A DNA stretch of 58,510 nt, the filler included, from Streblomastix strix (Eukaryota), in the NCBI GenBank assembly GCA_008636045.1. It is 2 parts of 2 records of this genome, joined end to end, with 100 filler letters (N's around TTAATTAATTAA, not from the genome) between each part and the next. Parts side by side here need not be neighbours in the genome. Positions count along the whole stretch, not along the records: positions 29,332 to 58,510 come from SNRW01000106.1; 1 more part is not named here. The stretch is one strand, 5' to 3'. The notes beneath the pieces were generated by a model, which saw only the letters and a list, made by a program, of their open reading frames with translations, ran no database searches and was not told the origin of the DNA. Shown here in pieces: positions 477 through 48,305 of the stretch. Both the position numbers and the translations under genes were made by a program. Positions within the stretch are counted from its first letter, which is position 1. Each line of letters begins with the position of its first letter.

Positions 477-597
477 TTTTTATTAAGCAGATTAACGATC
501 TGTACTACGAATAATATGCACGACGAAATACTGATTAATAAATCCCAACGTGATGCCATATTTGCTTTATATGTATTTGTATTTAACTTAAAACAAA

Positions 598-1567: not shown

Positions 1568-1584
1568 TAAAATCTATTAAATTT

Positions 1585-2010: not shown

Positions 2011-2071
2011 TTTATTTTGGAATTTTTCAAAAATAAATTTTTCACAGATGAATAAGTTTAATATAATTAAA

Positions 2072-3454: not shown

Positions 3455-3507
3455 AAATAGTTTCAATATCCAAAAATAAATTAATTACTGTTCGTACTAT
3501 GGTATTT

Positions 3508-17097: not shown

Positions 17098-17116
17098 GGT
17101 TCGCTTTCTTATTTTT

Positions 17117-21161: not shown

Positions 21162-24100
21162 TCAATCAAGCATTGCCAATATTTCACTTTATCTATTAAA
21201 CTTTGGCATTTTATATGTATGACTATGTAATTTATTTAATATTAATAAATACATATAACGTAGAAAGAAAGTATGTATTAAAAGCCAAATAAATATCTAA
21301 TAATAAATACCTTAAACCATAAGCTTTACGAATATCTTCAAGTAAATTCACAATAACTTCTTAATTTCCTTCCATAATCTCTTTCTCTTTTGTCAAATAA
21401 TGTAGTGGCATAGCCTGAATTAAAATGAATAAATAAATATAAGAATAAATATTTTATTAGGATATTAATCATAACTTAATATTATTTAAATTAGTATATT
21501 AATTATAATTAATAATATGATAAATAAAACTAATGCAAACTTTCCTTTGTGTAACTATTTCAAGAGCTTTTCTGATATTATGCTGATATTAAGCAGTTGA
21601 TTTCGGCTCCCAAGAAACGCCTTGCAATTTAATATGGTCAAGCTACTCAATAATCCTGCAGAGAACGGTGCCATCTGTGAGCTGCATTATTAAATTAAAA
21701 TAAAGTTAATAATAAATAATATAATGATATTTATATATTAAACATCTAAATATATATGTAATATTATAATTACTATTTATTGTTATATATTTATACTTCA
21801 TAAATAATTGGAGAGTCGAGTGAAAAAGGAGAAGACAATCGGATTCCAAGTGATTCAAGCCATTTAGCCAGAAGATATGGCGGTTTTGGAGCCTGAATAG
21901 TAATAGTAATATTAATATTAAAATACAAAATATGAAGTAAAAAAAAAAATTATAATATACAACTAAAAACAATATATTACAAACAAAATAAACTAAAATA
22001 TCATCACAAACCAAATCCAACGCCATCATATACGCTTTTTATTTCGTCTTGGATGCTTTCAAAGCCTGCTAAACCTCAGTTTATTATCCGAGTTCTTCTT
22101 CCTCTGCAATTTCTCCATTTGGAAGGAAATTCTGCTTCTTCATCGCGTGCGGAGGCAAAGGTAGTTAGTGTTCCAATGGATCAGGATACACTTCGAAGTC
22201 TTCATCGTTGATCCTTCTTTTGACTGACCCGTGTCTTATATTCATATTCATTGTTGGTTTGGGGCCTACAGTGATACTTGGTTGTGCTATTCCGCCTTAG
22301 AAAATGCTTTATTTCTAGCCAATTGGATTCTTGTTCCATATACTCGACGCTCCATACATAGACGGAGCATTCAGCTCAGATGGAACTATGCTGATCCTTG
22401 AGCGGGATTTGTTCATTGTTTTCCCTAATCCAGTTTATGCCATACTAAATGAGAAAATAGACCGAATTTCATCGTGAACAGCTTTTTTTGATCTGTGACC
22501 AAGCTTCCCTAAATTTCCTCCATATTTCTAAGAAACTTGAGATTGCCCAGATATGCTCTTCCTCCCAGTAACTGACCCATTATCATTCATTATTTAGCCA
22601 GACACCGATTTCTGATTTCCAGTTCTCCTGGTTACAACAGAACCATTCCCATTAATAACAGTCGATAGATCACCGTCTCCTAAGTCAGCAACTTGTGTGG
22701 GTTAACATCCAGTAAAAACATCTGGCGTTAGAAAACCAGGTCTTTTCTCCTTTGATACGGATATAGCTGATAGTAGCGATGATGACATTGAGTCAAAGGA
22801 ATCAAGTTCGTCGTGATCTCTGTTTTGAACTTGGCCACTCAATAACGACTGCGCATATGCCATTGATGCTGAAGATGACATTCTGTTCAGGCCGTGAGTT
22901 TGATTTATTGATCCTGATCGGTTGGTGGTCATTTACCCCTGACGTGACGTGGGGGGTTTTCCAGCTTGTGCTAGTACTAATTATGACAATGATTGTCTGT
23001 TCGTTTTATTCGCATCTAAGAAAGTCTACTATTTATCTGATTATTATTACTGCAATTTCCCACTTTTCGTAATAAGTCCCATAGCAGCTTTCTTAAACCC
23101 ACCTTTAAATAGGCCTTTTCTCTTCATTTCGCGGATCTCTTTTAAAACTCTCTGTCTTTCATTCTCCTTCTTCTGTTTCTCCTCAATTTCAGATAATCTC
23201 AGCTTTTCAGCATCTTCTTCTTTCTTGTCAACATCTTTGAACTCTTTAATTTCATCTATTACTCCTTATGCAGATGTGGGTATTATATACTACTTCTAAA
23301 GCGGTTTCACACCTTGATAGCATCTGTACATATCGTCCAACACACACAGGATAGCATTTCTATCTCCAAATAAGATGTGGTCACCGCACCACAAATTCCT
23401 GTTCGCTAAATTCGGGCAGTTTCGGAGCAGATCGAGCGCCTTTTCAATGTTCCTCCTGGCAATAGCAGGCGTCTTTGGGTCAACAGTCATCCCAACTATT
23501 CTCTATTTGCTCAACATCGATGCCAAATCACACAGTAGAACACCACTCCTGAAATTGGGTATCAACTCGTCAATACATGAAGGGATCGGGCCTGAAACAA
23601 TCCCTAGAGAAACAATCCACCCCAGAAGTGCACCTTCCATCTCATAATTGATCTCAGGTTTATAAGGCATAGAATGGTACGGAGGTGGTGCAGGTGGCAA
23701 TGGGATGTTCCCTCTGTTACCGAACATCGACATCCCTTGTTACTATTCTGCTTATGAAGTTGTGAGTTGTATCCCAATACCTGACGTGGATCCGTGTGCT
23801 GATGTCTGATCTGTGGATTCGCGGTTGTGCCAGAATTGGTATTGCGGGTTTGAGCTGAACTTCTCTGATACTGTTTAATAGTATTACTTCTGCCCAGGTG
23901 ATTGCGTTGGGAAAGGCTGGATATTCGGTTTGTCGTATTCAAATTATGTTCCGCTGTATTTGGCAATAGCTTATCCAGTCGCTGGATATCTCTTTGCTTC
24001 TCTAATTCGCTTCAACTATTCAAAATCAGCCTCGTTTTTCCCACCAGAATCAGACAAACTGACCAAATCCTGCTCATACTTCCTCTTAATATCCAAATAT

Positions 24101-27039
24101 AGCCCCCACATCGACCCATTCTCATCATGCATGAAAGCGTCGTGGTTCGAAAGATAAGACAAATCCACTCTATGGTCAGCTCTAAGCACAGTAAAAGCTC
24201 TCCCTATGTTCTCCCTCGCTTCAGATATAGTCAAGACTGACCTAACTCCGCCCAAAGCTGGTTTCTTAGCATTTGCAACCTTCGATCTCGACTGGGATGA
24301 TCTACTGATGCAGCAGTCGACTACATCGCATAGGACGGCACCGTTGCGCATAGGGTTGGCTATGACATGCGCTGATTAGTGGCTGTCGAGGACTTCGATG
24401 TGTAATTGCCTGAGCCACTGCAGGACTTCGTACTGCTCCATTTTTGTTACTCTGGGGTGGTCGTCGATTATCTGAGGGTGTTACAATAATAATATTATTT
24501 TAATAATTAAATAAATAATATACAATATATAAATATATAAATTTATTATAAAGATAACAAATTTTATTAAATATTGATAAATATAATTTTTAATATTTAA
24601 ATAAGTTCATTTATTAAACGATATAAACATATTTACACACTCCATCTCTCAATATTCTGTGCTCCACTTTATCATATTCAATCACAGTTGGTCCTTTCTT
24701 CCTTTTCTTTTTCTTCTTTCCTGCAAATCTGGGATCTTTTGATTGGGATAATTATTCTTATTTCTCTTTTTAGAGTTCTTCTTCTGTTTTTCGAGGAAGT
24801 GGAAGTCCTGATAATAATATACAAGATAATAATAAAAAATTATTCAATCAAATATATATAATTCAATTTAATTTAAATATATTTATTTATATTTAATGCA
24901 TTATTTCTTTTTTATTTAATCAATATAAATTAATTAATATATAATATTATACCAGGTGTCCCCAAAGGCCACAATTATTCTGGTGTTGGAGGAGGTTTCT
25001 TCAATTGTTTCTTCTCGTCTTTAAGTGTTTTTATCAAATAAGAACTTGCAAAACTAGTCGGGAATTTTCCACCTCCTTTTTTAATGCTTTCTTCCATTTC
25101 AATCTCAATTTATGCTTAAATTTCTTTTTCTCGCTTAATTTGTGAGTCTCGCAGAAGAGTAAGTTTCATTTTCGGAGGTGATTTGTATTATAGAGTATGC
25201 GGATCTATTGGATCAATTATTCCATATTTAACTTTCTTATGCCCATATTATTATTCATTTGAATTTGAATTTGAATTTGCACTAACGCTTCTTTCTTTAT
25301 TTTATTCATCTCGAATTGGAGATATGGATGATGAATAATTTCGTTTCGGTGTAAAATTACTTCCTGTTGATTATCTGTTTAAATATACATTTGTTCCTTG
25401 TGGTGCATACGTTGATCCTAATTGAAAAGATTCGGAATTAGTTTTGTTTGATTTCAGATCAGATTAAGATTATTATTATTGTTGTTGTTGTTGTTGTTTA
25501 TTTTATGGAGATAATGAAGATGATGAATTTAAATTGATGTTTCTTTGTTCTTTTATATTAGCTTGTTATGTTTCTGGTGATTTGAGAGGAGATTAAAGAT
25601 TATTTGTTTGAGAAGAAGATTTACTTTCTTTTGCGTGTTATTAAGCTGATTATTATTTTGGTCCAATTAAAGCTTCTTTTTTATTTATTGGACTTTGTTT
25701 CTAATTTGAATATTTCTGATTTGGACTTTGATTTGATTTATTATTCAGATTTGGAGATGTTGATCTCAATGGTTCTACTAGTGATCCATGAGATGAAAGT
25801 TTTTCTTATTATTGAGATTATGATTATTTTTAGATTTAATTTGGTGATTATTATTGAGTTTGTGATTAATTAGGTTAACTTTATGATATTTTCAATGAAT
25901 TATTTGATGATATCTTGATTGAGCTTTATGGAGAAGCTAATGTAGCTGAAAAAATTGAAGGTGCGTTTGATTTTAGTATTTAATTATCGTTTTAATTAAA
26001 TAATTCATTGATTTTATTACTTTCTTCATTTTAATGTTAATTTTATTCATTTTCATTAATTATCTAATTATTTGTTTATAATGGAACTTTCACAACATCA
26101 ATATCAAAATCAGATGAAAGATTGTTTTTCTTTGAATATTATTTTCTTTTCTTCTTCTTCTTATGTTATTATGTATATTCAGATGCAAAAGATTCGTTCC
26201 AATTATTTTCCCACGCTTTAATTCGTTTTTCATCAGAATAATATTATTTCAGTTTTTATTTATATTTATATTCATCATCTGGAGATAATGAATTTCCAAT
26301 TGAATGTTCTGGTGAAGTTGAAAATGATTCATTTTGCATTTGATTGAAGTTTTCACTTATATTTTGACCTTTGATGTTTTATGTTGAATTAGGAACTTAA
26401 AGTGATTAATATTATTACAGATATTATTATTCTTGATATTATAATTACTGTTATTAAAGTAAATGTGACAGTTTGCTCGGACTCAATTTAGATGCTTCAT
26501 GTCCTAAGTTAACAGTATATGATTATTGCCACGCTGATAATGGAATTGGTTAATCTGATGGAGAAAATCCTCGAATTGAAGATGATTATATTTATTATTT
26601 TATTAATTATGATTCTTTTGATTTCAAATTGGATTATTAATTAGAATTAATATTTTGATTATAGTTTTCTTTTCCTTATAAGTTTCTTCTCTAATTTGGT
26701 GACAATGTTTCATTCTTATTTTTAAATCCAAATGTATTGATTGTTGAATTATCAATTTATTATGAAAATGATAATTATTATTATTATGATTATATTTAAT
26801 CTTAATTTGTATATATACTCAATTGTTCTTACACTCTTTTAGGTAAAGGTGGTGATGGAATTTCTGATTTTGAATTTAGTTCATATTTAGAAATTGAATT
26901 TCGAATATTGATGCTTTTCTTAAGTGGAACTTCAGCTTTGTTTTCTTTTAATAGACTTTGATATAATGTTTCTTTTTATTTTGGTGATTATTAAGTTTAT
27001 TAATGTTTTGTTTGAATAGTGTTCTTTTATTCAAAATTC

Positions 27040-27078
<39 letters not shown>

Positions 27079-27797
27079 TCGAACTAAGTTTATTTAATTT
27101 AATTCCTTTCTATATTTATATTTTATTCAATTAAATTATTTTTATTAATTTTTTAAAAAATTTGAATTTTTTAATTTGTTTGTAAAGGAGTTTGTATTGC
27201 TTATGAATTAGAGAATTACTTCTATTCAGCTTGTGAAGTTTTGAAGGACTACATTGTTAATGATCTTTGCTGTAAAGTGAATAATGACCGAATAAAACTG
27301 ACAACTACCCAAATTTCACCATTCACATTCTGATATAATAAAAAATAAAATTATTGAAGAGAAAAAAAATTTGATAAATTAATAATAAATTAATAATATA
27401 TTAATAATATATTAATAATTTTAATAAAATATTTATTTAAATAAACATTAAAGAAAAATATAAATAATAATACTTCAGCAATAAGTGTACTAGCATCCGG
27501 TTGTTTCAAAATATCAGGGAAAGGAATTTTAGTTTTAGTCTCAAAGTATTAAGAGTTCAATATATTCACAACTTCATCAATGTTGGAAATTTGATCTTCA
27601 ATAGTCTGTGGATTTCTATGAACTCTTTATATTTCACAACCTCCAAGTATTTCAAGTAATTCACAAAGTACAACTCCGTTTTTAAGATTTTCTGCATTGT
27701 TCACTATTGTGCAATTCAAACTGGGTTCACCATCTAAATAAGGCTGTTTGTTGATCCAACTGATAAGTTCACGTTCACTAGCACGCAATGCACTCAT
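21162..27797 (-). CDS. Large multi-exon protein with four calponin-homology (CH) domains separated by Q/S/N-rich linkers
   Basis: Four W...L-x-[ND/S]G-x-[VL]LC signatures: LISWINK..LKNGVVLCELLE, VLQWLRQ..MRNGAVLCDVVD, LLGWIVS..FRSGVLLCDLAS, LAKWLES..LTDGTVLCRIIE, each followed by an NI..A-type helix. Seven GT-AG introns with consistent phases; ATG 27797, TGA 21162-21164. Confidence 0.85.
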
Positions 27798-29231: not shown

Positions 29232-29331
29232 NNNNNNNNNNNNNNNNNNNNNNNNNNNNNNNNNNNNNNNNNNNNTTAATTAATTAANNNNNNNNNNNNN
29301 NNNNNNNNNNNNNNNNNNNNNNNNNNNNNNN
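29232..29331. other. 100-nt assembly spacer containing an artificial six-frame stop linker TTAATTAATTAA (29276-29287)
   Basis: N-runs flank a palindromic all-frame TAA linker, so the two sides need not be truly adjacent. Confidence 0.9.
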
Positions 29332-32300
29332 CATATATTGGAAGTATTTCGAGATTAATTCCTTCATTTTCATTAAACATTTCTTAATAGACATCATAAT
29401 GTTCTTTAATTTATTATATTGATAGATCTGAAAATGGTTTGAGTAGATTAGTCAGAGTCTTAGTATGTTGTTTAACTTATTATTTTATTTATTTCTTTTC
29501 ATTTTAATTTTAATTATCATCCTTATCTTTTAATAAATTGTTATTATTCAATTATTGAGCATCAGTATCCATTTCTTCTTCATTAATTTAGTCATCATTT
29601 TCTTTTTCATTATCTTCATTATTTTTCTTATTTTATTTCTTATTTTGATTTTTTATCTTTTCTTTTATATTTTTATCCTTGTTTATTGCTTTTATACTTT
29701 ATTGTTTATTTGCCTTCTTTTCTTCTTTTTTTCTTTCCAGTTAAGTTTTTCTCAATTATTATAGAGTGTTTAAAAACTTACTATTTTACTCATCAAATCT
29801 TTCACTTATTTTCTTCTTTATTATTCCTTATCCAAATTTATTATCTAATTTTTCATTTATTTTATTTATTATTAATGTTTAAGATGGAATTTAACTTTAT
29901 TATTTAAAAAAAACGGGTTTATGTTGAATTTCGTGCTAATTTTTTCTTGCTTATTAATTTTATTGTTTTGCTGTTAATTCATCTTCAATAGTCTCATTCT
30001 CATTTTATTTATCCATTTACAATTCCTTATCTTAAGATTTATTCATTTGATTTAACTTCTAATCCTTATTCTCCTATTCTTCATCATCACTTTTGTTTAA
30101 TTCAAATTAGAAATCATTAACAATGTCCAATATTTCATTTATTATTGATTCTAATATATCCCACTATTATTAACCCCAATTTTGTTATTGTTATTATTTT
30201 CCTTTTTGTTCTTCTTCTTCTTTATTGAATTGGGAATAAAATTAATCAACATCTTTTTCAATTTATAGAATATCACTTCCATCAGAACTATTTTCATTAT
30301 CAATTTATTTATTATTTAATCTTCTTCTTTTAATTCCACCCAATTCATCATCATCATCATTATTAATTTAATTATCACTATCATATTCATTATCATTATA
30401 TCTCTTTCTCTTATTCTTTTACCCTATTTAGAAATCTGAATCATCATCTTCATCAATTTTCGTCCTTTTCTTTCTTTTTCTTCTTTTTTCTTCTGCATTC
30501 AAATCATTTTCCATTTCTATTTTATTATCCATATAAATATTTTCTTTATTTCTTTTCTCAACTTAATCTTTTTTCTTTTGTATTATTTTTAACATTCTTT
30601 AAGCATTTCTTTATTCAGATTCAACAACACCTTTATGATTTCTAATTAATTAAGCTCTGCTATCTAATTATTATATTTTAAATAAAGATTCTATATATAT
30701 TGATTAATCTTATTATGAATAATGTGCAAATGATTATACTAATGCAAGAGCTAATCTTACAACTCCTCTTATTCCAAATTACGAAGTAACTGTTTATTCA
30801 TGTTTTGATTTAATAATTAAATTATTTGATTAACCGTTAGATTATAATTAAATATTTTTTTAATCAATAATTTTAGATTCTTTTTCTTTTCCTTTCATTT
30901 TTGTTTTCAATTTTTTCCTATCAATCATTCTTTAATTTCTTGCAGACCTTTATTCTTATTATCTTTTTTATTCTCTTTATAAAATACCACAAACTGTATA
31001 TAACGCAGAATATGTAAATAATATTCCCATAAAAGGTTAATCTCTTGAAATTAGTATTGGAAATAATTATGCCCCAGAATTTAATGATGATGAAGAAGAT
31101 ATTGGAGATGAATTGTTGTTTTAATTTATATGAAGAAAATCAGTCAATGAATATGAATTAATCTAATTTTGTTATTTGTCAATATCATCACTAATAATAC
31201 CAGGAAGTTAAATCCATCCTCTTCCATATTAATATTTAAATATTTATTATTTGATTAATGTATCATTAATAGTTTATTTCTAACTTTCTCTATTAATATT
31301 TATATTATCCTTCTTTTGATACAATCTAATAATTCCACTCATTCCCCAACCTTCACATCTGGTTCCTTATCCTTAGTCAAAGCATGAAAGTGATACATCT
31401 GACACTATTAAATTCAAATTTTATTCCTAATAAAATTAAATATATTACATATAATACAGTTGATAACAAATAGATAATTAAACATGTAAATAAAACAAAA
31501 TAAAATGAATAATAAACCTAAGGATCAGAAATTACACACAATACAGAAGAAGCAGCTTCACTAGCTGCTCTTACAATTTATCGTTCATATGCAATTGCAA
31601 GAAGCAGAATATGTATCTATGAATTTGTATTTTGTATATATATATATATATTAAATATAAAATGAAATATAAATATTTATTATTTTCAATTTTTTAACAA
31701 ATATATATATTTAAATTCAAACAACAGAAGGTACACTAAATCTTCTTACAGCATGAGCATAATCACAATGAGAAGAAAATCCAGAATGAATGCATTAAAG
31801 TAGTAATGATAACTTTGATATATATTAAATTCGTTATTATTACCTAATTTTTAAATTTTAATCTTAAAAGTTCTATTTATTACTTATGTCATTTGATTCA
31901 ATTTTATTAGAAGATTATAAATTATTAAATTATTAAATCTATTAAATAGTTTATTCTTATTAAACAATATCTTTATTATTAATATGGTCAATATCATTTT
32001 CCATATCTAACTTCTATACTTCCATATTTTTCTTTTCATTCTCATCATTAATTGATTTATTATATTATTAATTATTTGTATTAATTTATATTTGACTCTT
32101 CTAATCTATGTTCAAAGTATTCTAACCATCAAGTTCAATTCTAACTTCGTCTTTATCATTAAATATATTATCTAAGTCATCTTATATTAATTCTAGTAAT
32201 AAATATTTTTATCTTTATTTATTATTTAATTTCTCTTAATTTATTCTTTTTATTATTTCTTTTCTTTTAATTCCCTTCGGAGTCAACATTCTTTGCTTTA

Positions 32301-35300
32301 ATTTAATTGCTGATCCTTATTATTTCATTTTTCTTCCAGATCTTCCATAAACTCCACCCTTAATCATATTTATACATAATAATATAAAAATTATTAAAAT
32401 AAATAAATAAAATTAAAATTAATTACAATTAATTAAGAATAAATGATATGAATATTTATATTACCTAAGAACTTCCTATAGCTTCTAATCCAAATAAACC
32501 ATCTTCTTCCATTTAATCTAATTCATTTCTTTATTATTAATCATCATCTATATCTTTTTAAGATAATTAATATTTGCTTTGTTATTTATTTGATTTAGTA
32601 ATGTTTTTTATTGGAGTTTATAATAATAAATCTTTATTTTATAATTAAATTTATTATTTTTCTTCAATAATATGTTTTTCTTATTAATTTATGTTATATT
32701 AATTAATGTTTCCTTATTATTTAATAGGAATATTTTCTGATTAATAATCAATTTCTAATTCAATTTAATTGTTTCTTTATTTATCTTCTATATTTATAAT
32801 ATCTTCATCATCATCTTCATCATCATGATTCTATTTCACAAGTTTTCTTCTTTGCTGATTCTGCAATCCATTTGTATTTAAATTAATTTTATTATTATTT
32901 TATTCATTAAAACCGCTTATTGCTGAGTTATAATTATCAATATCAAAGAAATCATCATTATCTTCTCCCATATATTCATTCTAAATATTAGTTGTATCTC
33001 TAATTATATCTTCATTTTCATTATCTAAACTATAATCATCCTCATCTTCATCTTCATCATTTAATGAATCTCCCAATTTTTCTCCTTCAATTGTACCTTC
33101 ACTCATTGATAGCATTGTTATCATCATTAATTTATCATTAATTTCATTTCCTAATTAATTCCTTTATTATTTATTCTTATTTATATTATTCATATTTTCA
33201 TTCATTTAATCGATCTATTCATTGATCCAACTAATTTTATTTCTAATTCCTTAAGTACTTTTAGCCATTTTTGAAACCCAAAAAACTTCTTCTTCTTCTT
33301 CCCATCCTTTTTGTCTCGCTTCCCAACGAAGATCACTCAATCTAATTTATTAACAATTAAATTATTATTAAACTACAATAATTTACAATTATAATACCTA
33401 TATAGTGACAAAGTAAGTGCAGATAATTAGATAATATCTCCTAATGTATCAATTCCCCATTAACCCATTCTAAATTATTTTATTAATAATAATGTTAACT
33501 TATTTACATTAATATACAATAAATAAAAATATATAAAAATAATTATTATTAAATAAAGAAATTTATATTAAAATTTATATAATAGTATATTTATACACTA
33601 ATACTTCCAATAATTCATTGTCTGATAAAAGTGATGCTTCAATTACTCTTCTTACTCCAACAACTAAATGTATCCTTTTCCAAAGAGGTAAATACTAATA
33701 TATATATACAAGAATACAAATAATAAATATCTTATCTGAAATTTATGAAAAAGAATATATATAGTGAAATACGAATAAACCTGCGCTTAAGCAAATAATA
33801 AATCTCCTTCATTTTCTTCCTCATCTATTCCATTATTCTTCTTTAAGTTTTCCTGGTTCTTTTCTTTCTCAAATTCAATTTTCATTGCTAATAACTAATA
33901 ATAATAAATATATATTATATAAAGTGAATATTATATTATAAATGAAGTTAAATACTTCATCATCTGTTAATTCAGTGTCTTCAGTAATAAGAACTGTATT
34001 AACAGCCCAAACTAACTCTACAAGAAGTCGTAAAGCCGATCAAATTTCTACATATCTATAATAATATTAAACATAAAAAATAAATACTAAGATAAAAAAA
34101 AATTTAAAGATTAAATATTTTTATTTAATAATGAATAAAGGACTTTATACTTATCTTTCATTCCAATCCATTCAACAATCCTTTGAATAATTAATCTAAA
34201 TAAATCAATTCTTAGCAATACATTAATAACAGTGGTATCATATCTTGGCATTCTTATATGAAGAAGACAAGGTGCCATTTAAGAAAGAAATTATTGTTAT
34301 TAATATTACTGTTATGACTAAGAAATGAAAGATGAAGAAATATTCTATGATTAAGATTATAAAGCACTAAATGATTTTGTAGATGTATCAATTGATATAA
34401 TTGTTGGTAACTAATATTATTTTGTATTCATATTATTGCTAGTTCTATTATCTTCAGTAAAATATGTTTATTAATCTTAAATAATTTACCTTTTTATTAA
34501 TTTTCTTTTTTAAGGATCAATTGGAATTGGAGTAACGCCGCATGAGAGGATTGGTAAGAATGGTTAACTTCCTTCATTTAATTATATTTCTATTAATTCT
34601 TCCTGTTCTTATTCATATTTTTCTTAGTCTTTTACATCATTTCTTTATTCAGAATGCATCAATTAAACCCACCATTTCATAGACTTATTTTCATATTATT
34701 ATCTTTTTAATGAAAGAATTAAAGCAAATAATCTTATAGTGTATATCCAACTGATCATTGGAATTTCATTTTCTCCATCCATTCCAGACAATCCCCTTAA
34801 TAATCCTCCTAATGAACATGATATTAACTATTCAGATCGTAAAGACAATGTATTACAAGCTGACCATATAATTCCTTTTCCAATTTACGTTACTCTGGAT
34901 AATGCACTTCTACCAGGTAGAAGAATCTAATCAAATCTCCCTCCTTTCGAGCTGTTACTAATATTTGAACCTGCATAAGTAATATCTTATATTGAATATC
35001 CATCATTTATCTAAATTCCTTATCTTTGTTATGTTAATGGATGATTAGACATATTTATATTTAGCGGATCAATTTTATGTAATTTGATTATTTATTAATT
35101 TTATTAATTCAAATTTTATATATTATCATCTTTTAATGTTATTTTTGATCTGGGAGCTCCAATTGTTGATGTAAGTGGTGTAAGTGTTTGAATTGTTCCT
35201 TATTATTAACTTATTTAACTTATTTAATTTTATTATTTAATATTTTGATAAGATTTCTAAAATGCAATAATTGGTCCTGTTCCTGATGATTAAGCTATTG

Positions 35301-37252
35301 ACTTCCTTTCCTGGATATATTATTAATATAATGAAATAGTAAAGCAATGAAATAAAAACAAACCTTCAGTTTAGCAAATAAATTTAAATTATTATTTTGT
35401 AAGTGCGTTTATGAATGAAGCTCTAATAATCGATCTTTAGCACTGGTGTTGTGAGTTAATATTTCATTCTTATTTTATTATGGTTATTGTAAGGATAATT
35501 ATGATGGTAATGAAGAAAAAATAGATTAATGATTTTATTTTTCATTTCTATTAATCAAAGAAGGAGGAAACATTGTATTCAATGAATATTATTATTTCTC
35601 ATTTTCTTTATCTTATTTACTTTTATTCTCCAATTCTAATTGTATTTATTGTTATTTAATTTTCTCTAATCATTATTCTCTTTCTATCTTTCTCCTCATC
35701 TTCCTTATTCTTTCTCCATTATTACCCCCACTTCTGATATAATCAACACATAATCTATCTGGATGTGCATCTCTTATAATAAGCCCATAGCAATCAATGA
35801 CCAACTGTGATATTGATGATGTGTTCAATGTCATTAATGCTGCTGTTGTCATTGCTTATGTTACTGAAGATACTATTGAGTGAAGAGTGTGTTATTATGA
35901 CTAAGAAGATTAAGAATGATTGTTTTCATTTCTATTTATTAAATATTCATTACTTTAATTAGTATTGAAATAATTATTGTTGTTTTTATTATCAATATTA
36001 GTTTAGTTTGCTTTGCTATCATTCATCTATCCATCCTGTTAATCTTCTTCTTCTTCTTCTTCATTCCAACTCATCTCTACATCCACAGCCAATTAATGAA
36101 GACGTGGAGCATGTGGCATTAATATTCTACAATATGGAATAATCTCAACAATTAATGCTAACATATCAAATATTCCAGTTACTTCAAATGTCTTTAGTAA
36201 TTGTTCATGTTTTGGACCACTCATGAATAGTATGTTTCTAATTAATGTTAAAAGTAATTCAATTAATGCTCCATCTTCTTCTTCCATTGAAATTAATGAA
36301 TAAAGCTTATCTATTTATTCTTTTTCATTCTCTCTCTAATCTTCTTCAAGTACCAAAGCATTTTATATCAATTCAGCTTCTTCTTCATTTTCTTCTTCTT
36401 CTTCTTCTTCTTCTTCTTCTTCTTCTTCATTTTCTTCTTCATCAAATTAACTTTATTCTTCACTATTATCCTCTTCATCAGAGAACAAATCATCTGATTC
36501 ATTTTCTTTATTTAAATTGTTTTGTTATTAATTAGTGTTTATTAGATTTGATTTATCATTATTTGCAATATCTATTTTATTTGATTATTAATTTAATTGA
36601 TCATTTTCATTTCCTCCTTTTTCTTCATCTTCATCATTTTCAACTTTAGTTATTTCTTCTTCCCCATTTGGTAGTAAATTCATAAACAATGAGACAATAT
36701 ATAAATAAAGCCTTTCATTAGAAACAAAATCTTCTTCAAAATGATATATAGTGTCTCTAAATCTCAAAGGTCTTCCAACATTCTCTTCAATTTCTAATTC
36801 TTCTGCTCCTTTTATATTATGAGTTAAAAGAGTAAGATCAGTGTTTGTTGGCATTGAAACAAGTGTGAGAATCTTTAGTGCAGATAATTATATAGTATGA
36901 AGCATTTCTATGTTTGCCATAAATCCAGTTTCTTTTTCTTGTTCTTCTTTCAGTATTCTTTCTGAACAAGCAATGAATAGTGGTATAATAACTTTTGAGA
37001 TCACATGGTTACGCGCAAGGCTTTACCATATAAGACGATTTGCTCCTTCACGATTCAGTAATCCAAAAAGTAATCTTACATTCTATTATGACCGTTTCAG
37101 CTCTTGACTGTAATAAAGAAACAAATAAAAAACTTGTGATATTAAATGGTGGGTAATAACCTTTAATTTCCACTCAATTCTCCGCTTTAAATCTTCTTCA
37201 ATGTAACAGCAAGAGTTGATATCGCATATGTAGCAACATCAGTTGAAGGCAT
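29332..37252 (-). CDS. TIMELESS: Timeless/Tof1/Swi1 family replication-fork protection protein, multi-exon, 3' end lost in the gap; two in-frame TGA codons
   Basis: Collinear Timeless-like motifs: ALKILTLVSMP, EEEDGALIELLLTLIRNILFM..KHEQLLKTFEVTGIFDML, LVIDCYGLIIRDAHPDRL, SALRLLVELV, TLGDIIQLSALTLSL, SIYIESLFK, with long acidic/Q-rich insertions. No frameshift found; one splice junction near 33470-33600 is uncertain. TGA at 35670-35672 and 34040-34042. Confidence 0.78.
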
Positions 37253-38029: not shown

Positions 38030-39660
38030 CAATATATAAATACAACGTCTTACTCAGCGTCTTCGCAATGTTTAAGATGAAAACAGCAGATCTCAGATAT
38101 TGTCTGGTGAACAGTCTTTGTTTGATAAATAGAAGGTTAAGTATGAAGAATTATAAGCAAATTATCATTTAACTGTTGAATAGATGCAGAGAGATGTTGA
38201 AAACTTATAGAGACATCAAGATCAGGAAGTAAGGAACATGCTCTTGATATAAAAGAATTGGAAAAGAAGAATCAGAAAATAATTAAAGATGCGGAGAAGA
38301 AGAAATAATAAGAAACGGATGAATAGATTGAAGAAAATGAAAGATAATGTAAATAACATGAAGAATAGATATTAAAAGAAATGAAAGAATTAGAAAATAG
38401 ATTCAAATAAGTATAGACAATTAAATCTGAGATTAATTAAGAACGCGATAGAAGAGAAAGAGACATTTAGAATGTATTTGCATAGAAGATTGTTTAGATT
38501 AAAGAAATTGAGAAAGTGAATATACAACAGCTCATTCAGAACATTCAGAAAGTATTCAGAACTTATGATAAAGAACTGAGGAATCTGAATAATTAGTAGA
38601 AGAGATGAAGAATAAACTTGATGAAGATACCAAACGTGAACATGAAGCTAGTACTATATATCAACAATCATTATAACATGCAGTTGAGAGAACAAGATCA
38701 GATGCATTATAAGAAACTGTAGAACTGAACAGAAGACTTAATCATAGATAATCTGAATTGGAGCTACAATCAAAAAGAGAAAAAGAAGCATATCGTATTC
38801 GTGAAGATGCTCTTATAAAAGATACTAGCCAAAGAGAACAAGCTTTGAAAGAACAATCCAAAAGACTTAGAAAACAATATGAAGAGAAAGAAATATAGAA
38901 GGATAATGAAAGAAAAAGATGGAAGAGTTAGATCAATTCAGCCAGCGATGAAACAGAAGATGAAAAAAAAGAGGATTAAATAATAGAATAAAAGAGATAT
39001 AGAATAGATAAATGAAGAATCTGAGAGGAGACTATAGGAATTAGACAGGAAATGGTAGAGATAATTAACTGAAATGGTTGATGCATAGAATAAAGAGAGG
39101 GAATAATGGGAATAAGAGATAGATTAAAGGGAAAAAGAAGCTACTCAGAGATTTAATTCCTTTCTTAATGAGACTAAAAGAAGATAGGATAAAGAAGTGA
39201 ATGAATTATAATAAGCTTTAAGTAGTGCAATTGAAGAGGCTAAAAGGAGAGTGGAATAATTAGAAGCTGATATTCGTAGAGTTAAGAAAGAGAAAAAGAA
39301 TGAATTAGAGAAAGCTAAGAAAGATCGAGAATTTGAAAAAGATCATTGAAGATGAGAGATAGAAGTTCTTATAATAAGCACAGAATCGGGAGAATACGTT
39401 TAGATAGGCACTTGAGAATTTAGATCAGAAATATGCATAATTGTAAAGAGATCGTGAATCCATATATTAATTAGAGAAAGAACATGCAATTAAATAAGCA
39501 GATATAGAAAGATATATTCTAGCAGTATAGATTGAACAGAAAGAGGATGATATATCAAAATTAGAGATTAAATTGACTAGATAGATACAATATAATAAAG
39601 ATAGTTCAGAAAGAAGAGGAAGGGAAAATAATACAACAGATCTTGACAACGGAAAGTCTA
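38030..39660 (+). pseudogene. Decayed fragment of an E/K/Q/R-rich coiled-coil protein gene
   Basis: Coiled-coil-like reading must change frame near 38230, 38590, 39000 and 39380; TGAs near 39347-39355; no clear start. Confidence 0.7.
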
Positions 39661-40157: not shown

Positions 40158-43100
40158 ATGTTAGGTAATTAGAACAAAAAATAAAGATTAGAAGATCCAA
40201 TTTAGGAGTAAGTAAATATCTTGTGCAGCTCTGTATGAACTTTTATTTTATTGGAACTTCCTTATATTTGATTAACTGCATCGTTAGCTTGATTGTGACT
40301 AATCAGAAATGACACCATGCAAAGCAGTAGCTAATTTTTCTCCAACAAATGTATGTCATTATAAGTAATATTTATATTTTTCTTAATTTTTGAGTATTTT
40401 TGAAGGGAACAACCTATCTGCGAGTGGTAAAAGATGATGTACTAACTATAGACTCTTGGAGGTCAGATGATTATGCTATGTGTATAAACTCATCAGGAGA
40501 AAAAGGTCTCGTTCCCGGTATTTGTTTGCAGTTGGAGGATGCAAATATGAAGCATCCTTTCCTTGATGACGTTTATATGAAAGAAGTTAAACGTATAACC
40601 GTGGATAGCAAGAAATACATGCATTACAATCCTGTTGATAGACATGGAAAAAATTACGATTCAGGTCATTTAAGACATGATATCTAATGTCTGCAAACCA
40701 ATGAAAAGGCTGAAGTCTGTAATCGGAGGCCACATCGTCATTATAAGCCTGCTGAAATTGAATCTGAAAGTAAATAGATGGTAGATGAATTGTAGCATAA
40801 ATGTACATTTAGCAAACCTAAATTCCGTTCTCGGATATATAGTTAAATTATGTCTATTGAATTGTTGTTATTTCTGTTTTTAGAATTTATGTCTAAAGTG
40901 ATTCTATCGTTTACATCTGCTACATCTGACTGTTTCTATTCATTTGTTTATGGAGCTATGACTCTGGCTAGGTAGAACCCCACTGTCCCACTTGAAACTC
41001 TTTTTCCAAGATATTAAAGACAGAAAATTAGTGAGCTTATTAACGACAAAGGATAACAAATTCTTACAAACTTTTTAATGTCTTTAAAGAATTTCTATGT
41101 GTCTATACAAATAGATTCAGCCAAATTAGTTGATTAAAAGCTAACCATAGCAACCATATAGACCCCTTTCCTAAGTAGAAAGTCTATTGTAATCGATTAT
41201 TTTATTGGATCAGTAACATAAGATGCATTGGTAGCATTTGGAGTAAGAGTCTATAAAAGACTAAAATCATTTGGTATTAGAGTAATATCAGTTACTACTG
41301 ATACCTTAAGGCATCAAATTGCATCATTTGACCTGTAATCTGATAATTGTATTTATAAACTTATTAATGAAGGAATCATCCCTTATGGAGCATCTTGCAC
41401 CGCTCACGTTCTAAACTTATGTTATTGTGCAGATATATTAAAGGAAAAGCCTCTGTTCAATTTTAATAACAAAGTGTATGATATATTCAAAAAGTCGATT
41501 GGAAACAAGTGCAATGTAATTGTGAAACGATGGTTAGTAATCTTTGATATATTCATTTATCTACTAAAGAATGACTCAGATAAATTATAGAATATCAGTA
41601 AGTTAATCCTTATTTTTGGTCCTGCACGAGAAGCGAGTTTGCTGTTTGAGAGACTTGGTTCAACATATATTTGCGTATTCCCAATAATAGTTCAATTGAT
41701 TTTATATTATGATTGGTTGATGAAGAAATGGATCAAAGACATTAAGGAAGAATATTACTATGTACTGAGCGTGTTCTCAAATAATGTTTATAAACGTTTT
41801 ATTTATAATGATAAGATGCTGGAGCTATCCCTAATTTCATTTTCGTTAACAGTAAATGGAAGACGATGCTGTGCAATGGGAGAGTTCTTAAATGTTTCAA
41901 TGTTCAAGGAAGAGTTCAAACTGAAATCATTCCCGGATGAGTATCTTAATTCTTAATAAAATGAAGATCCACTTCCCATTATTAATTCAATTTCCAGTCA
42001 AATTTCACCTGATACTTAATAAGAATAGAAAATAAAATAAAGATTAGTTGATGATGGATAAAATATGAAACTAAATGAAGTAGCTGAATTAAATGAAAGT
42101 ATAAATAAAAATGAATAGATTAAAGAAAGTAATAACGAAAACCAAAAAGATTCTGCTGATGATGTATGTGATGACTAAATTGAGTCATAAAATTTAGGAG
42201 AAAGAAGTGAACTGGAACAATCATAGTATTCTGAAAGTTTAAGAGATAGAAAACAGTTGAATAAAAACAAAAAAGATTCTGAATATGTTTATGATTTCTT
42301 CTAAGATGATTATGAAGATAAATTAATAGAAGAATTAGATTAATCGCCAGAAAAGAGAAAATAAAGAAAATTAAATAAAAAATAAGAAAAAGAATAAGAT
42401 GACTACTAAGATTAGTCAGAAGATGAATCAGAAGATAAATCTGAAGAAATGGAAATTGAACAAAAAGAAAGAATTTAAAAGAAAGAAAAACCAAAAAAAC
42501 AAAGAAGTATTGTTCAAGAATAATAAAGAATCAAAGATAAAAACTACGAGCTTAGTTATGATCTACTTAAATAATTAAAATCAATTAATTTTCTCCATAT
42601 TATACTAAATGGATATGAGAAATATTATAATTTAATAAATAAAAATGAATAAACGACATATAACGATGATTCCACTCCCAATCCTTAATCATTAACTAAT
42701 GTATCATCAAAAACTTCAATTGAACAATAATCTTCTTCATCTTATTCATTGCAAACACCAACAAGAATTTTTCCCAATACTATACTTCTAGCTCCATTTT
42801 TTCCCAATTCAACCCTTCAAACATCAGTTACACCTTTATTACTTCCAAATATTCAAAATAATCTTAAATAAGAATCCTCTGTTGCACTTCATCTTTTAAG
42901 ATAACCTAAAATAACTGGACCAAAGTTATTCTTCAATCTTTGGAGAATGGGAGACGAAATTGCATATGACGATATGTTTGACAGCGGATATGATGAAGTG
43001 GAATACTTCAAAGTGCTATCACTTGATCCAGTATATAAAAACATTGGAGTATTTGCGCTTCACATGCTTGGATGTGCATGTACGGAAGCATCATGTGAGA

Positions 43101-43195
43101 GGGTCTTCGCAATACTAAGAAGAATTGTAAATTGTCATAGAAAGAGGCTGCTGATCAAAACAATCATTTCACTTTATATTTTTTTATCAAATTGA
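40158..43195 (+). CDS. hAT-superfamily transposase with N-terminal SH3-like domain, intact
   Basis: Inferred introns 40212-40287 and 40351-40405; then one open frame to TGA 43193-43195. hAT motifs SIQIDS (D), SVTTD (D), SCTAHVLNL (CxxH), KRW, CTEASCERVFAILRRI (E, dimerisation domain). SH3-like CKAVANFSPTNGTTYLRVVKDDVLTI...SGEKGLVPGICLQ. Confidence 0.88.
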
Positions 43196-43273: not shown

Positions 43274-44975
43274 TCAGCTGAGCAACTTCTTGTAGTCCAT
43301 AATAATGTCATTGAAATTTGTCTGAAACACAGCACGAGCTTTTGCAATGAAGTCTTTTGGTATATCATTCGTTATTTGCATTGTGAAAGCATCTCTGATT
43401 TTATCCCTATCTTCAACTTGTACTCCTTCCTCAAGTGTGTGAACGATAGTCAAATAGAACTGGATGAAGAAATAGAGTTTATTTAGGATATATAATAATA
43501 ATATATAATAATAATATAGATCATTTCTAAGGAAGATGAAAGGCAATAATTCGTTTGTTGCTGAATATCGAAGTCTGTCATCACGTGTTTCAAATGTGAA
43601 GAGAATCTACATAAGCTCTTCAAATAAATATGCATACTAAGAAAAGAAAATATTAAGAAATGAAAAAAAAATGGATAATTAATAATAAACTAATAATAAT
43701 TATAATAATCAATACATCAGTCCTTAAGTATTGATAGTTTGCATTCCTTTAATTATCTTTTATTTCTATTATTACTAAGAAATAGAAAATAATCCAGCAT
43801 TTCCAGCTGATGATTATTCTTCAGATTATACCAACGATTGTATTTCAATTACTGAATGATGTTAAAGCTCCCAGTATTTTTTTCAAGAACATCAATCATC
43901 TATGGTGGAGTGATCACTTCCATTGCAACATCAACTACATGATGAAACACACCATGAGCAAATTATATTAATCCTTTACTTAGTTTAGGAAACATCTAAA
44001 GTTAGATATATTAAGAATAATAATACAACAAATAAGAATGTGAGATTAGTAAAATTTATTTCAGTTTTATTTTATCCATTTATTAATTAAATAATATTAT
44101 TTTTATAATTTGTATATATGCAAACCTGAAAGTCTCTATTATTTTTACTTACAAATAAGTGCAATGTAGCAGTAAGAGATGTTTATAATGAATCATCTTT
44201 ATAGAATGAACACTCGCCAAATGGGACATAATCGCCTTTAAATATAATAAGAATAAGAATAAAGATATATATAAGAATAAATATTTAAATATAAATTTAT
44301 TATTATAGTAATACAATTAGTGCATGCAACAAGAGTGTGTTCAATTGGTCTATTAATACGACTAGAACATAAATAAAAGAATTTAATCAATATTAAGAAA
44401 ATGAATGGAAAAGATAAAAATAATCTTTAAAAAAAATATGAATAATCTTCTTTTACTCAACTTTTATTATTTCTAAATATTCATACCTATAATGAGTCTC
44501 AACAATATCTTTCTTCAGTTTTTATTCAACTGATTATTCTGTCTAAGCTCTGGGATATTAAGAGAATGAGAATAAGAAAATGAATGATATATATAATATA
44601 TAAATATATAATGTTTCATATATATTATAATATATGAATATATATTATAGTATACCCATCATCCTTCATCATCTTCCTCTTCTTCTTATTATCTCCCTTC
44701 TCTCTTTCTCTTTATTATTCTTTCTCTCTTTCAATTTGTATTAACCCATAATTCCCTTCAATTAATTCTTATTAATTCTTAGACCTTCATTGCTCTAATG
44801 GTGTAATATATTGCTCTAGGATCCACAACTCCAAATTTGGAGTGTGCAGATGAGAAAGAAGATGATGGAAGTGATGCAGAAGGTGAAATAACTCCTGATC
44901 GAATATTATATACGTTTTCATCAAGAAATTCATCAAATTGTGATGAAATATTTTAAAACTCAATTCTCTTTAAAT
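43274..44975 (-). pseudogene. XPO7: 5'-truncated, frameshifted, intron-retaining fragment of an exportin-7/RanBP16-like gene (C-terminal part)
   Basis: Spliced translation gives DYVPFGECSFYKDDSLQTSL...DFQMFPKLSKGL and RYSATNELLPFIFL...KARAVFQTNF, resembling the exportin-7 YVNFGVFRLYGDD / YPKLS / WSMSRPLL / RDRFTQN region. Frameshifts near 44855 and 43860. Confidence 0.65.
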
Positions 44976-45542
44976 AAGTATAAAAAAATTAATAAAACAG
45001 TTTATTCAAATAAATTTTTAATAATAAATAACAAAATTTAATAAATATAATAAAATTTTACGAAATTGAAAGGAGAAAACAAGAAAATGAATAGAAAATG
45101 AAAAATTTCCATATGTACAGTCTCATCGAATTAATAACTTTAAAATGGGTTTACATATATTTCAACAAACAGATTTATATCTATTAATTAAAGAAATATC
45201 GTACTATTATATTTGAACAAAATTAATGGGAAACTCAAGAAAAAAATTAAAAAATATCTCACGGCTTAGGCACTATTGGAACTTATGGATCATGTAATAT
45301 TTTTTCTTTTATAATATATGTTTTAAAACGTTTATGGCTTTGTTCCGGCTTTTAAAGCCCGGGGATTTGGCTACGGAGAACATACTTAATAATAACTAAT
45401 AATTAACATTTACATTTTTTTAAAATATACAAGTTAACTAACAAATTTAAATAAATTAATTTATCAAATACGTTATTGTTGCTTTCAAATGTTAAGTTAA
45501 TTTTTTTTTTACATTTAATCATTAGAACGAATAAACCTTTCC

Positions 45543-47071
45543 ATGACAACAGTAATTGATAATATGTTTAAAGAGGAGGAGGCAAAATTGTCACTGTCTA
45601 ATAATATAGAAATTGATAAATATATTGAGATATTCCGCTAGTTAGCAAGTCAGGCTACGTCGCTTTAACATAGTAATGTTGAAAAAGCATTACGTTATGC
45701 ATACAGAAGTGTTCAGTATTTTCACTTTCATATAATTATCAATTTAATTATTTTCTTTAATTATTATTTAATATTTATACATGGTTTTAAGCGTTTACTT
45801 ACACATCATAAAACGTCATTATTGTTACAAAACTATTTAGACAAATATTAATAACCAATTGCATGAGGTTTATTTTTAATTATTTTTCTTTATATGTATA
45901 TTTTCTTATATATAGATTGCAAAATAAATGACAGGTTTAGTAGAACAACTTTCTTAGCATTTTAAAGAAATGGAGAATAAAATTGGAACAAATAAAACAA
46001 ATTCAATTTCTCCACCTTCACTATCATCATAAACTTCATCAGTATCTTCACAATCAGCATAAAAATAGTCATCTAATTATTTGCATTCTTCTTCTTCTCC
46101 TCATTCTCCATCTATTCTCCCTATACCTTAATCTCATTCTTCTTCTTCTCCTCATTCTCCATCTATTCTCCCTATACCTTAATCTCATTCTTCTTCTTCT
46201 CCTCATTCTCCATCTATTCTCCCTATACCTTAATCTCATTCTTCTACTTCTCCTCATTCTCCATCTATTCTCCCTATACCTTAATCTCATTCTTCTACTT
46301 CTCCTCATTCTCCATCTATTCTCCCTATACCTTAATCTCATTCTTCTTCTTCTCCATCATTATTTTCAGATTTATAACAAAATATAATACATGAAAAAGA
46401 TAATTAATAAAAAAATTAAGATTAAAACTTAAATATGAAAAGGTCCATATCTCCAATTTAAACTATTTCACCAAGTGCACCTCCAAAGGTATTAATTATT
46501 ATTTTTATTCGATTTTATTTAAAATTAATATATAGTTTGAGTTGATGACACTGGAAGAAGAAAAAGAAGCCGGTTATATCTGTCCAATTACTAAATAGGT
46601 ATTATTATAAATAATGCACACTAATAATACTGTTTTGTATTTATTATTATTAATCAGATAATGAAAGATCCAGTTCATGCACCAAAATATTTTGAAAAAG
46701 AAAGTTTATTTTCAACCTTAATCCTTTTTATTTTTATTAATTCATTCATTATTATATCACAGAGACATAAGAATATATAAACTGTGAAAGAGAGGCTTTT
46801 GTTAATCATGTTTTGTAATTTCAAAATAATCCATTTAGCTCCGATGGATTAGTTGACAATTTGAAATGTGATGAAAGTGATGAATAGATTAGTAATAGAA
46901 TCTTGGAACTTATCGAAAATTTAGGTTCAAACGATGAATTGAAGAATGAAATAGACGGTATTTTTAATTTTATATGACCAATTTTATTATTATAATAATT
47001 AATTTTATAATTTTATAGAATATCTTAATTTATTTCCTTAACGTCGGCCATAAATTAAGGAATCAAAATGA
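45543..47071 (+). CDS. Protein with N-terminal USP8/AMSH-type MIT-like domain, S/P-rich repeats and C-terminal U-box (putative E3 ligase); 7 exons
   Basis: U-box-like YICPITKQIMKDPVHA...CEREAFVNHV...NPF. N-terminus IDKYIEIFRQLASQATSLQHSNVEKALRYAYRSVHVYLHIIKRHYCY. Six GT-AG introns in phase; TGA 47069-47071. Confidence 0.75.
46084..46355 (+). repeat. Coding minisatellite, five copies plus a partial copy of 51 bp (HSSSSPHSPSILPIPQS)
   Basis: Units start at 46084, 46135, 46186, 46237, 46288; two carry TCT>ACT. Confidence 0.95.
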
Positions 47072-47231: not shown

Positions 47232-48305
47232 TCACTCTTTTGGTGATTTTTTTACTCGCTCGCCAAAAATCAAGCTTCCAATCCGTAAGTAATCAGCTCC
47301 TCTCTTTATCTAAGATATTAAGCAAAAAAAAACCATTTAAAAATAAAATAAATGATTCATACAGCTTCCTAATAAGAGTCTGACATTCCCATACTAAGAT
47401 TTATGTTTTTAGATCTAATTCTCGATCCTGGCATATCTTCAATTAAATCAATTTCAACTTATTTATCATTTTCTTCTTATTAGATTTATTCATCTTTGGA
47501 CTTACAAAACAATACTTTATCACGAGCTTCAACCTCAGGACATGAAAGAAGAATTTCTTTTAATCGAACAAGTTTCTTGATTAAAAAAATTAAATTATTA
47601 TAATCAAAATTTAATAATTAAGTATAGCATACATCAAAACATGAATAATCGCCTGGTTTTTCTACTGTCATTAAACCAATAAATTGTAGATTTCTACATT
47701 CATTTTACAAATACATAATCAGTTCAAGTATTTAACGAATATCAATATTGTCTTAGTTACCATCTTCTTAATTAGTGTTTATTTCTACACCACCAATCTT
47801 ACTCTCTTCTGGACTCGTCCTCACTTCTATTAAAACTTTAATAATTCGACGAGTTCCCTCACTTTCCAAACATTTCTAGATTTTTTCTGCTAACTTAATC
47901 GAATCAATTGTATGTATATACTGCAAATTTGGTACAGATAGTAATTACTTGATCTTATTAGATTAAAGATGTCCGATGAAATGCCAATCTATATCGATTG
48001 GTAACTAAATTATTAGAATAGGTAAAGAGAAAAATGATTTTTAGATATTAATAACATTGAAAATTTACCTCCTTTGACTTCTAGACAAGTTCTTGAACAT
48101 AATTTTCTCCAAAGTTGCGCTGCCCTGCATTGTAAGCAGCTATTATAAGTTCAACTCCTTTTGTTTTGGACACTGCAATAAGTTATGGCTATTAAATGTG
48201 TTTGTACAATTAACTGCAATCAGATATCGATTATAAAACGTCTTGCAAGTTTTATGTTATCATATCCTGAGTAATTGCAATAGTATCTGGTTTTATTGTG
48301 GTCAT
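47232..48305 (-). CDS. PLPBP: Pyridoxal phosphate homeostasis protein (YggS/PROSC/PLPBP family); 4 exons
   Basis: [27 protein letters not shown] (Q encoded by TAA), [20 protein letters not shown]; three GT-AG introns; TGA 47232-47234. Confidence 0.96.

Follow-up and report, generated by a model that had tools for sequence, protein, structure and literature searches.

Two TGA codons lie in frame in a gene of the termite-gut protist Streblomastix strix that is, judged by its sequence, a divergent Timeless/Tof1. We put at about even the chance that both are plain nonsense mutations and that this copy was inactivated recently; we infer that function was lost, that the loss is recent and that UGA would terminate translation at both sites. 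The gene occupies positions 29332-37252 of the window, by which is meant the whole stretch of 58,510 nucleotides (assembly GCA_008636045.1) that was analysed. Once TAA and TAG are read as Gln, TGA would be the sole stop, so that a decaying gene freed from selection would collect stops slowly and would retain a long, intact-looking frame. A protein terminated at codon 510 would lack the later armadillo repeats as well as the end that binds Tipin/Csm3, and the mRNA of the broken gene would likely be degraded via nonsense-mediated decay; S. strix possesses UPF1 (PMC1501061), and budding yeast can live without Tof1 (PMC10247859).

The gene model was inferred from sequence alone. It comprised 11 exons on the minus strand, running from 37252 to the assembly gap at 29332, and, when TAA/TAG are taken as Gln, 2,353 codons. 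Exon 1 (37161-37252) began with the ATG at 37252. Exon 2 (35364-37107; 1,744 nt) encoded the N-terminal ARM region, interrupted by long insertions of acidic and Asn/Gln-rich sequence, and was followed by exon 3 (34151-35310; 1,160 nt) and the short exon 4 (33956-34055; 100 nt), which was entered in phase 2 and left in phase 0. Exons 5-7 were modelled at 33894-33781, 33694-33597 and 33469-33398, and exons 8-10 at 33341-32465, 32358-31750 and 31616-31518. Exon 11 (29332-31426) ran open into the gap, and the true stop codon and 3' UTR lie outside the window. All ten introns were of the GT-AG type, 53-133 nt in length and 6-25% GC, with phases that close, and all 20 splice dinucleotides were intact. 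Intron 8 had an atypical AAG end. There were no frameshifts in the 7.06 kb of the gene. TAA or TAG stood in frame 226 times among 267 Gln codons, and 647 of the 759 purine-pair codons had a final A.

The first TGA (TGA1) was located at 35670-35672 on the minus strand, at codon 510 in exon 2 and within a predicted long charged helix. The second (TGA2) was located at 34040-34042 on the same strand, at codon 1004 in exon 4, and was flanked by two TGG codons, each 11 codons away. The codons, the exon phases and the organism were established, and both TGAs were found at the places that the initial annotation gave. Its description of an exon of about 1.7 kb with a continuous frame around TGA1 was borne out by a codon model that tracks the frame and had this gene left out of its training; it kept exon 2 in one frame across TGA1 under each of the three penalties tried. 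Its statement that no in-phase acceptor skips TGA2 also held, as there was none for the normal exon-3 donor downstream of TGA2 inside exon 4. If TGA is a stop, a Timeless/Tof1 homolog would be cut, as had been argued. A third apparent TGA near 31340 was in the wrong frame and was rejected. A contig of run X1 (6,826 nt, depth 23) covering 29584-36371 carried both TGAs and differed from the window by a single letter elsewhere and an insertion of 8 nt in an intron; neither difference touches a TGA, which indicates that the TGAs are not assembly typos, though X1 may be the source data. No second long copy was found at a likeness of at least 85% among the X1 pieces listed, which were the longest ones, and protein searches gave no paralog; loss of the gene would thus lack a visible backup.

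Pfam searches with whole exons gave no match. An isolated 84-residue stretch matched TIMELESS (PF04821) at 36144-36287 on the minus strand, over profile positions 127-187 of 271 (E 4.5e-5; 23.3 bits, below the cut-off of 25). Exhaustive HMMER searching returned four matches, comprising three self-fragments and one relative, P0006, with 39% identity at the protein start; its match is confined to about 130 residues at the N-terminus and ends before both TGAs. The predicted model of P0006 was of low confidence (pLDDT about 60 over residues 1-120). Compared with human Timeless (Z 9.3, rmsd 4.7, 123 aligned) and with yeast replisome chains (8b9a_X: Z 10.1, rmsd 3.3, 128 aligned), it aligned start-to-start; its Z of 9.1-10.1 to Timeless and replisome chains was tied by unrelated armadillo (ARM) proteins. 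The best Foldseek match (E 0.38) was a yeast replisome chain of 745 residues, its name not given, and a protein atlas search with P0006 gave generic helical-repeat leads only, all below 0.9. The helix-hairpin-helix predicted at the start of P0006 agrees with the published description of Tof1-Csm3 (PMC7337906). The Pfam match, the fold comparison of P0006 and that published Tof1 description together favour the Timeless label (PMC7337906). Exon 2 itself was poorly predicted (pLDDT 39), and a fold search with that model was empty; PDB sequence searches gave no Timeless match, and exons 3-11, in which the C-terminal Tipin/Csm3-binding helices and the PAB domain were sought, had no Pfam or PDB match. 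When exon 2 was searched against longer proteins, none of 7,958 candidates spanned a TGA. Neither of two metagenome scans confirmed DNA from P0006 or from relatives of it, and scanning viral contigs for more S. strix DNA gave no match. The initial annotation had called this the best single test locus because homologs exist. Only one of the four matches was non-self, limited to the N-terminal ~130 residues, and no relative was found to span either TGA, which makes the locus poor for an alignment test.

How little decay the two TGAs require was estimated from the gene itself. TGA arises from 567 of the 21,159 possible single-base changes, and two TGAs need about 1% neutral divergence. This is too little to erase motifs, so the Timeless-like motifs downstream of the TGAs, which had been taken as a sign of purifying selection, show nothing in that respect.

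A decaying retroelement served as an internal control. Its reverse transcriptase/RNase H frame (9844-12087, minus strand) held five internal TGAs and 21 TGGs over 748 codons with no frameshift. In 88 database homologs, mostly named S. strix, the TGA columns were Leu, Arg, Trp, Gly and Lys, Trp being one of five, and the copy deviated at 45 of 487 well-conserved columns (~9%). Fourteen homologs ended inside the region; eight of these had no partial label, and two of the eight ended before a Trp column. On this alignment the TGAs of the retroelement are plain mutations, and decay in the S. strix genome can yield TGAs without frameshifts. The proposal that all TGAs derive from CGA (Arg) gained no particular backing, with Arg columns at one of the five retroelement TGAs and one of the eight truncated copies.

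Damage was also observed in neighbouring genes. Gene E, an adjacent coiled-coil gene (38040-39640, plus strand), had four inferred frameshifts and a TGA at 38566, a ratio of four to one, and fewer homopolymer runs per kb than either the Timeless-like gene or gene J. Another gene on the same contig contained a 10-nt tandem duplication (44761-44780), which by our reading shifts its frame. These frameshifts may be assembly faults, in which case the argument from damaged neighbours falls away; since the codon model gave false shifts in a GC-richer calponin-homology gene, frameshift calls were trusted for AT-rich exons only. Gene J, a second long gene at about 49271-57013, had no frameshifts in ~7.4 kb and two in-frame TGAs on the plus strand, one at 49553-49555 in a 111-nt exon whose model is less certain and one at 50205-50207 in a long exon, with ~185 codons before it and 1,675 after. 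Two unrelated long genes thus hold two TGAs each. In a homolog search with the gene J region, none of 537 candidates, of lengths 348-1,110 only, spanned a TGA. We counted in favour of a broken Timeless-like gene the retroelement TGAs, the ~1% drift, the damaged neighbours, the frames that end in TGA, the four other host genes with TGG but no internal TGA, and the 2 TGA to 18 TGG; against it were counted the lack of frameshifts in this gene and gene J, the intact splice sites, the failure to find a second copy and the pair of TGAs in each of two unrelated long genes.

The strongest rival is an ambiguous code, in which UGA means an amino acid when distant from the poly(A) tail and a stop when near the mRNA end, so that full-length Timeless is made. 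We regard this as possible but less probable than a broken gene. The sense meaning would possibly be Trp, by analogy with Condylostoma and the karyorelicts, or Arg. Tentatively extended to the organism, it would leave S. strix without a dedicated stop codon, TAA/TAG being Gln and UGA being Trp or Arg internally and a stop near ends. The host in-frame TGA rate, 4 in 8,241 codons (0.049%), lies between the rates of Condylostoma (0.042%) and Parduczia (0.120%; PMC4967479), but it is inflated because the window was flagged for having TGAs. The tallies omit the exon at 45929-46488, gene E and the gene at 43276-45700, the last two on account of uncertain frames. The TGAs of a repeat on the minus strand near 46100-46350 were discarded as the antisense of Ser codons in a plus-strand gene. 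In favour of an ambiguous code, neither the Timeless-like gene nor gene J has frameshifts or lost splice sites, and no second copy was seen. The position model needs short 3' UTRs, and these are feasible here, since two convergent stops in the window lie about 80 nt from one another; frames ending in TGA include those at 47232, 17576, 57013 and 43195, as predicted gene ends. Several TAR=Gln lineages have sense UGA, as Trp or as reported Arg, and a Q,Q,R code is reported for some spirotrichs (PMC4967479, PMC10089648).

Against an ambiguous code, no homolog column supported any residue at either Timeless TGA, and the TGAs that could be aligned, those of the dead retroelement, were plain mutations with Trp in one of five. 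Four other host genes had 21 TGGs and no internal TGA, and four open transposon or viral frames had 18 TGGs and no TGA. Freely used or fully equilibrated UGA=Trp was rejected by 2 TGA versus 18 TGG in a gene of A-ending codons (P 1.5e-13). In favour of such a code, all four host TGAs lay in a more hydrophobic context than random nonsense under flat and AT-biased spectra (P 0.009-0.11; post hoc, n=4), but P rose to 0.07-0.28 with spectra limited to GC-to-AT changes or TGG, and to 0.16-0.63 for the Timeless pair alone. The window held no tRNA gene and no eRF1 gene. In PMC13002328, which reports single-cell S. strix transcriptomes (PRJNA1433164), S. strix is handled as TAR=Gln only.

Unlikely, in our view, is that the TGAs are spliced out by unrevealed introns, a 60-nt purine-rich one over TGA1 and, over TGA2, one whose donor and acceptor are displaced, or that two genes are present. 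A 60-nt frame-keeping GT..TAG pair (35725-35666) does cover TGA1, and its donor resembles that of the real intron 8; the initial annotation did not contain this point. In PMC1501061, S. strix introns are from 46 nt long with up to 38% GC, and the base preceding AG is always a pyrimidine. All 35 candidate pairs over TGA1 were nevertheless exon-like (best score -0.22), the 60-nt pair scoring -0.57 against +0.05 to +0.28 for the ten real introns and having 25% T before its AG against 30-70%. Among 15 alternative pairs over TGA2, only the 128-nt pair 34143-34016 had an intron-like composition, and it had a weak donor and a GAG acceptor and skipped two TAG acceptors. Hidden splicing would require both rare events, and no intron pair covers the gene J TGA at 49553.

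Somewhat less likely again is that the TGAs are early whole-genome-amplification errors, or that they belong to one allele whose intact counterpart dropped out. A single sample gave all three runs; X1, which may be the source data, is not independent, and rare variants get dropped from contigs. The separate X1 assembly had identical TGA letters at depth 23 and one other difference in 6.8 kb, and four such errors in two genes would demand a rate far above that of proofreading amplification.

It is very improbable that UGA is selenocysteine or is mended by RNA editing: Timeless is not known to be a selenoprotein, neither TGA site lies within a redox motif, and Rfam gave no match in the window, where a SECIS could not be seen because the 3' end of the gene is missing. 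Oxymonads are reported to make selenocysteine, M. exilis but not S. strix being named (PMC10703272).

A broken gene would be a minor record of the loss of a fork-protection subunit in an amitochondriate gut symbiont, and a caution that pseudogenes look deceptively intact in genomes with one stop codon. If the code is ambiguous, it would be the first such code found reported in metamonads, for which the literature searched gave none. Oxymonads would then be an independent origin, beside ciliates, Amoebophrya and Blastocrithidia, of a code that allows a sense meaning for every one of the 64 codons. They would allow a test of whether UGA becomes ambiguous more readily where TAR=Gln; many table 6 gene models would be truncated or split in error, and re-annotation of the S. 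strix proteome would be needed.

The code of the window is closest to the Ciliate/Hexamita code (NCBI table 6), under which three of its frames matched NCBI/UniRef entries letter for letter. Table 6 permits no internal TGA, whereas the Timeless-like gene has two. With the Condylostoma and karyorelict codes (NCBI tables 28 and 27) the window shares TAR=Gln, a similar rare UGA rate, UGA at ends and short distances between neighbouring stops. The evidence for sense UGA in those codes comes from homolog columns, dN/dS, mass spectrometry and ribosome profiling (PMC4967479, PMC10089648), whereas in S. strix the likeness is one of DNA sequence. The gene shares with the Timeless/Tof1/Swi1 fork-protection subunit (PF04821; PDB 5mqi) the TIMELESS match on one stretch, and differs from the usual Timeless in its length of more than 2,353 codons, about twice as great, in its long insertions of low complexity and in the two internal TGAs. 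Like a young unitary pseudogene or null allele, it is a single-copy gene with damaged neighbours that looks intact but for its two TGAs, disabling if they are stops; it differs from such a gene in showing as yet no frameshift or splice loss.

The window consists of AT-rich eukaryotic DNA; its introns are short and of the GT-AG type, and its long frames are open only when TAA and TAG are read as sense. Reading of TAR as Gln is known for S. strix from published accounts (PMC13002328, PMC1501061). Three of ten window frames translated with table 6 were present letter for letter in NCBI/UniRef. N gaps lie at 29232-29331 and 55231-55330.

The Timeless/Tof1-like gene was modelled on the minus strand with 11 exons and 2,353 codons, from an ATG at 37252 through to the gap. 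Its ten introns are all GT-AG introns of 53-133 nt. The acceptor of intron 8 (32359-32361, minus strand) is AAG, not YAG, the sole atypical one among the ten. TAR accounts for 226 of 267 Gln codons, and the gene contains 18 TGG codons and two in-frame TGAs, TGA1 at codon 510 (35672-35670) and TGA2 at codon 1004 (34042-34040) of this exon model. The initial annotation had described the locus and both TGAs, and this model agrees with it.

Pfam searches with whole exons gave no match; an isolated stretch, one of nine scanned, matched PF04821 with E 4.5e-5 and 23.3 bits, below the cut-off of 25. The sole non-self relative among 1.84 billion representatives was P0006, a 293-residue metagenome fragment with 39% identity to the gene across the first ~130 residues. 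The low-confidence P0006 model starts with a helix-hairpin-helix like that described for Tof1 (PMC7337906), and Foldseek ranked a yeast replisome chain first with this model (E 0.38). The model aligned start to start with human Timeless (Z 9.3, rmsd 4.7, 123 aligned), and unrelated armadillo proteins tied. The feature is real, and the gene is likely Timeless, a label that is not proven. If translation ended at codon 510, the protein would stop ~160 codons past the Pfam-matched stretch and, judging from the published structure, would lack the later repeats and the Csm3-binding end.

We give gene decay about an even chance of explaining both TGAs, and the ordinary reading of TGA is somewhat more likely than the unusual one. 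An internal control was provided by a decaying retroelement (9400-17100, minus strand) with a reverse transcriptase, RNase H and recombinase-like frame and an internal duplication of ~1.4 kb, which we take to be DIRS-like without Pfam confirmation and whose best database relatives carry the name S. strix. Its pol frame (12087-9844, 748 codons) contains five TGA and 21 TGG codons and zero frameshifts. The residues at the five TGA columns in 88 homologs are Leu, Arg, Trp, Gly and Lys; of 487 well-conserved columns, 45 differ between the copy and its relatives, among them two further Trp columns that now hold other sense residues. Fourteen homologs end inside the region; with six labelled partial left out, the ends of the eight truncated ones precede Arg, Leu, Cys, Trp, Gly, Trp, Gly and Gly. 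Because these columns and ends are spread over residues, neutral decay in this genome yields TGAs from many codons without frameshifts.

The divergence needed is small: 567 of 21,159 single-base changes in the Timeless gene give rise to TGA, so that one is expected for about every 0.5% of neutral divergence. Survival of downstream motifs, previously taken to suggest purifying selection, is therefore uninformative. Timeless had also been proposed as the best test locus because homologs exist, but no relative spanning TGA1 or TGA2 was found in protein homolog searches or metagenome scans.

Damaged neighbours on the same contig also favour decay. Coiled-coil gene E (38040-39640, plus strand), head-to-head with Timeless, required four frameshifts (-1, -1, +1, +1; net zero) plus a TGA at 38566 under all three penalties of the frame-aware codon model, as judged from the assembly; both -1 shifts lie near GT donor-like sites and are possibly unusual short introns. 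A multi-exon gene at 43276-45700 (minus strand), presumably like the C-terminal half of exportin-7 but with no Pfam match, carries a 10-nt tandem duplication at 44761-44780 (again as judged from the assembly) that by our reading shifts its frame, and it probably has a second frame break near 43870. Decay is further favoured by the dispensability of Tof1, the loss of which yeast tolerates (PMC10247859).

Readthrough of UGA as an amino acid is the next explanation, possible but somewhat less probable. The 2:18 ratio of TGA to TGG in Timeless rules out freely used sense UGA, and chance lesions are favoured because the window was chosen for having TGAs. On the other side, zero frameshifts occurred across ~14 kb of two homopolymer-rich genes, Timeless and gene J, versus four frameshifts to one TGA in gene E. 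Gene J (49271-57013, plus strand, ~2,450 codons) has TGAs at 49553 and 50205, no homolog of it was found, and it is a second locus for testing readthrough; a 127-nt exact duplication flanking its 100-N gap indicates a scaffolding overlap artefact at 55104-55457. Weak support comes from a second Timeless copy not being found among the contigs or protein-search matches listed, weakened because no annotated protein model of the Timeless exon was found either.

Seven segments of six host genes, one further out-of-frame exon being left out, comprised 8,241 codons with 53 TGG and four internal TGAs, two each in Timeless and gene J. The other four genes had 21 TGG and no internal TGA: a calponin-homology gene (21300-27797, minus strand, ~1,900 codons, PF00307 match); a membrane protein with Cys-rich repeats and a C-terminal transmembrane stretch (17576-20600, minus strand), which is a candidate surface protein; a TGA-terminated three-exon gene (47232-48305, minus strand), presumably like the PLP-homeostasis protein YggS/PROSC but with no Pfam match for single exons; and the last gene. 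Were UGA sense throughout the genome, four TGAs confined to two genes would be unremarkable (P about 0.12, misframed exon included). In favour of readthrough, the TGAs lean slightly to structured contexts in a post hoc comparison (P 0.009-0.11 for all four, 0.16-0.63 for the Timeless pair). The block at 535-8915, which we take to be Polinton/adintovirus-like without Pfam confirmation, uses the host TAR code and has no internal TGA; its polymerase-like frame is broken once, near 5766-5775. A hAT-like transposase (40394-43195, plus strand, weak PF05699 match) is open for 933 codons under table 6 and stops ~80 nt from the stop of a convergent gene.

Hidden splicing that removes the TGAs is unlikely. 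Over TGA1, each of the 35 GT-AG pairs that keep the frame was exon-like (best score -0.22 versus +0.05 to +0.28 in real introns), including a 60-nt pair (-0.57) absent from the initial annotation. One of 15 pairs over TGA2 was intron-like, but its donor is weak and its acceptor is GAG; in S. strix introns, as far as described, a pyrimidine precedes AG and the 3' end is T-rich (PMC1501061). Artefact or allele dropout is less probable still. A contig from sequencing run X1 covering 29584-36371 at depth 23 differed by one substitution and one intronic insertion, none at either TGA; this separate assembly, maybe of the same reads and so not an independent sample, carries both, which excludes assembly typos there. 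Selenocysteine or editing we consider very improbable. These rankings are judgements and were not computed.

Gene decay is preferred; sense UGA would be the important outcome. A limited literature survey, short of the S. strix genome paper, the 2003 code description and supplements, met no account of an oxymonad in which UGA is sense. It appears never to have been put to the test in print for S. strix, since a 2026 oxymonad transcriptome paper took codes from tubulins only and applied the Hexamita table to S. strix. Under readthrough, Trp would be the usual choice and Arg may also be possible, as UGA is reported as Arg in some ciliates with TAR as Gln (PMC10089648). The TGA rate of 0.049%, a point for readthrough, is near the values given for Condylostoma (0.042%) and Parduczia (0.120%) (PMC4967479).
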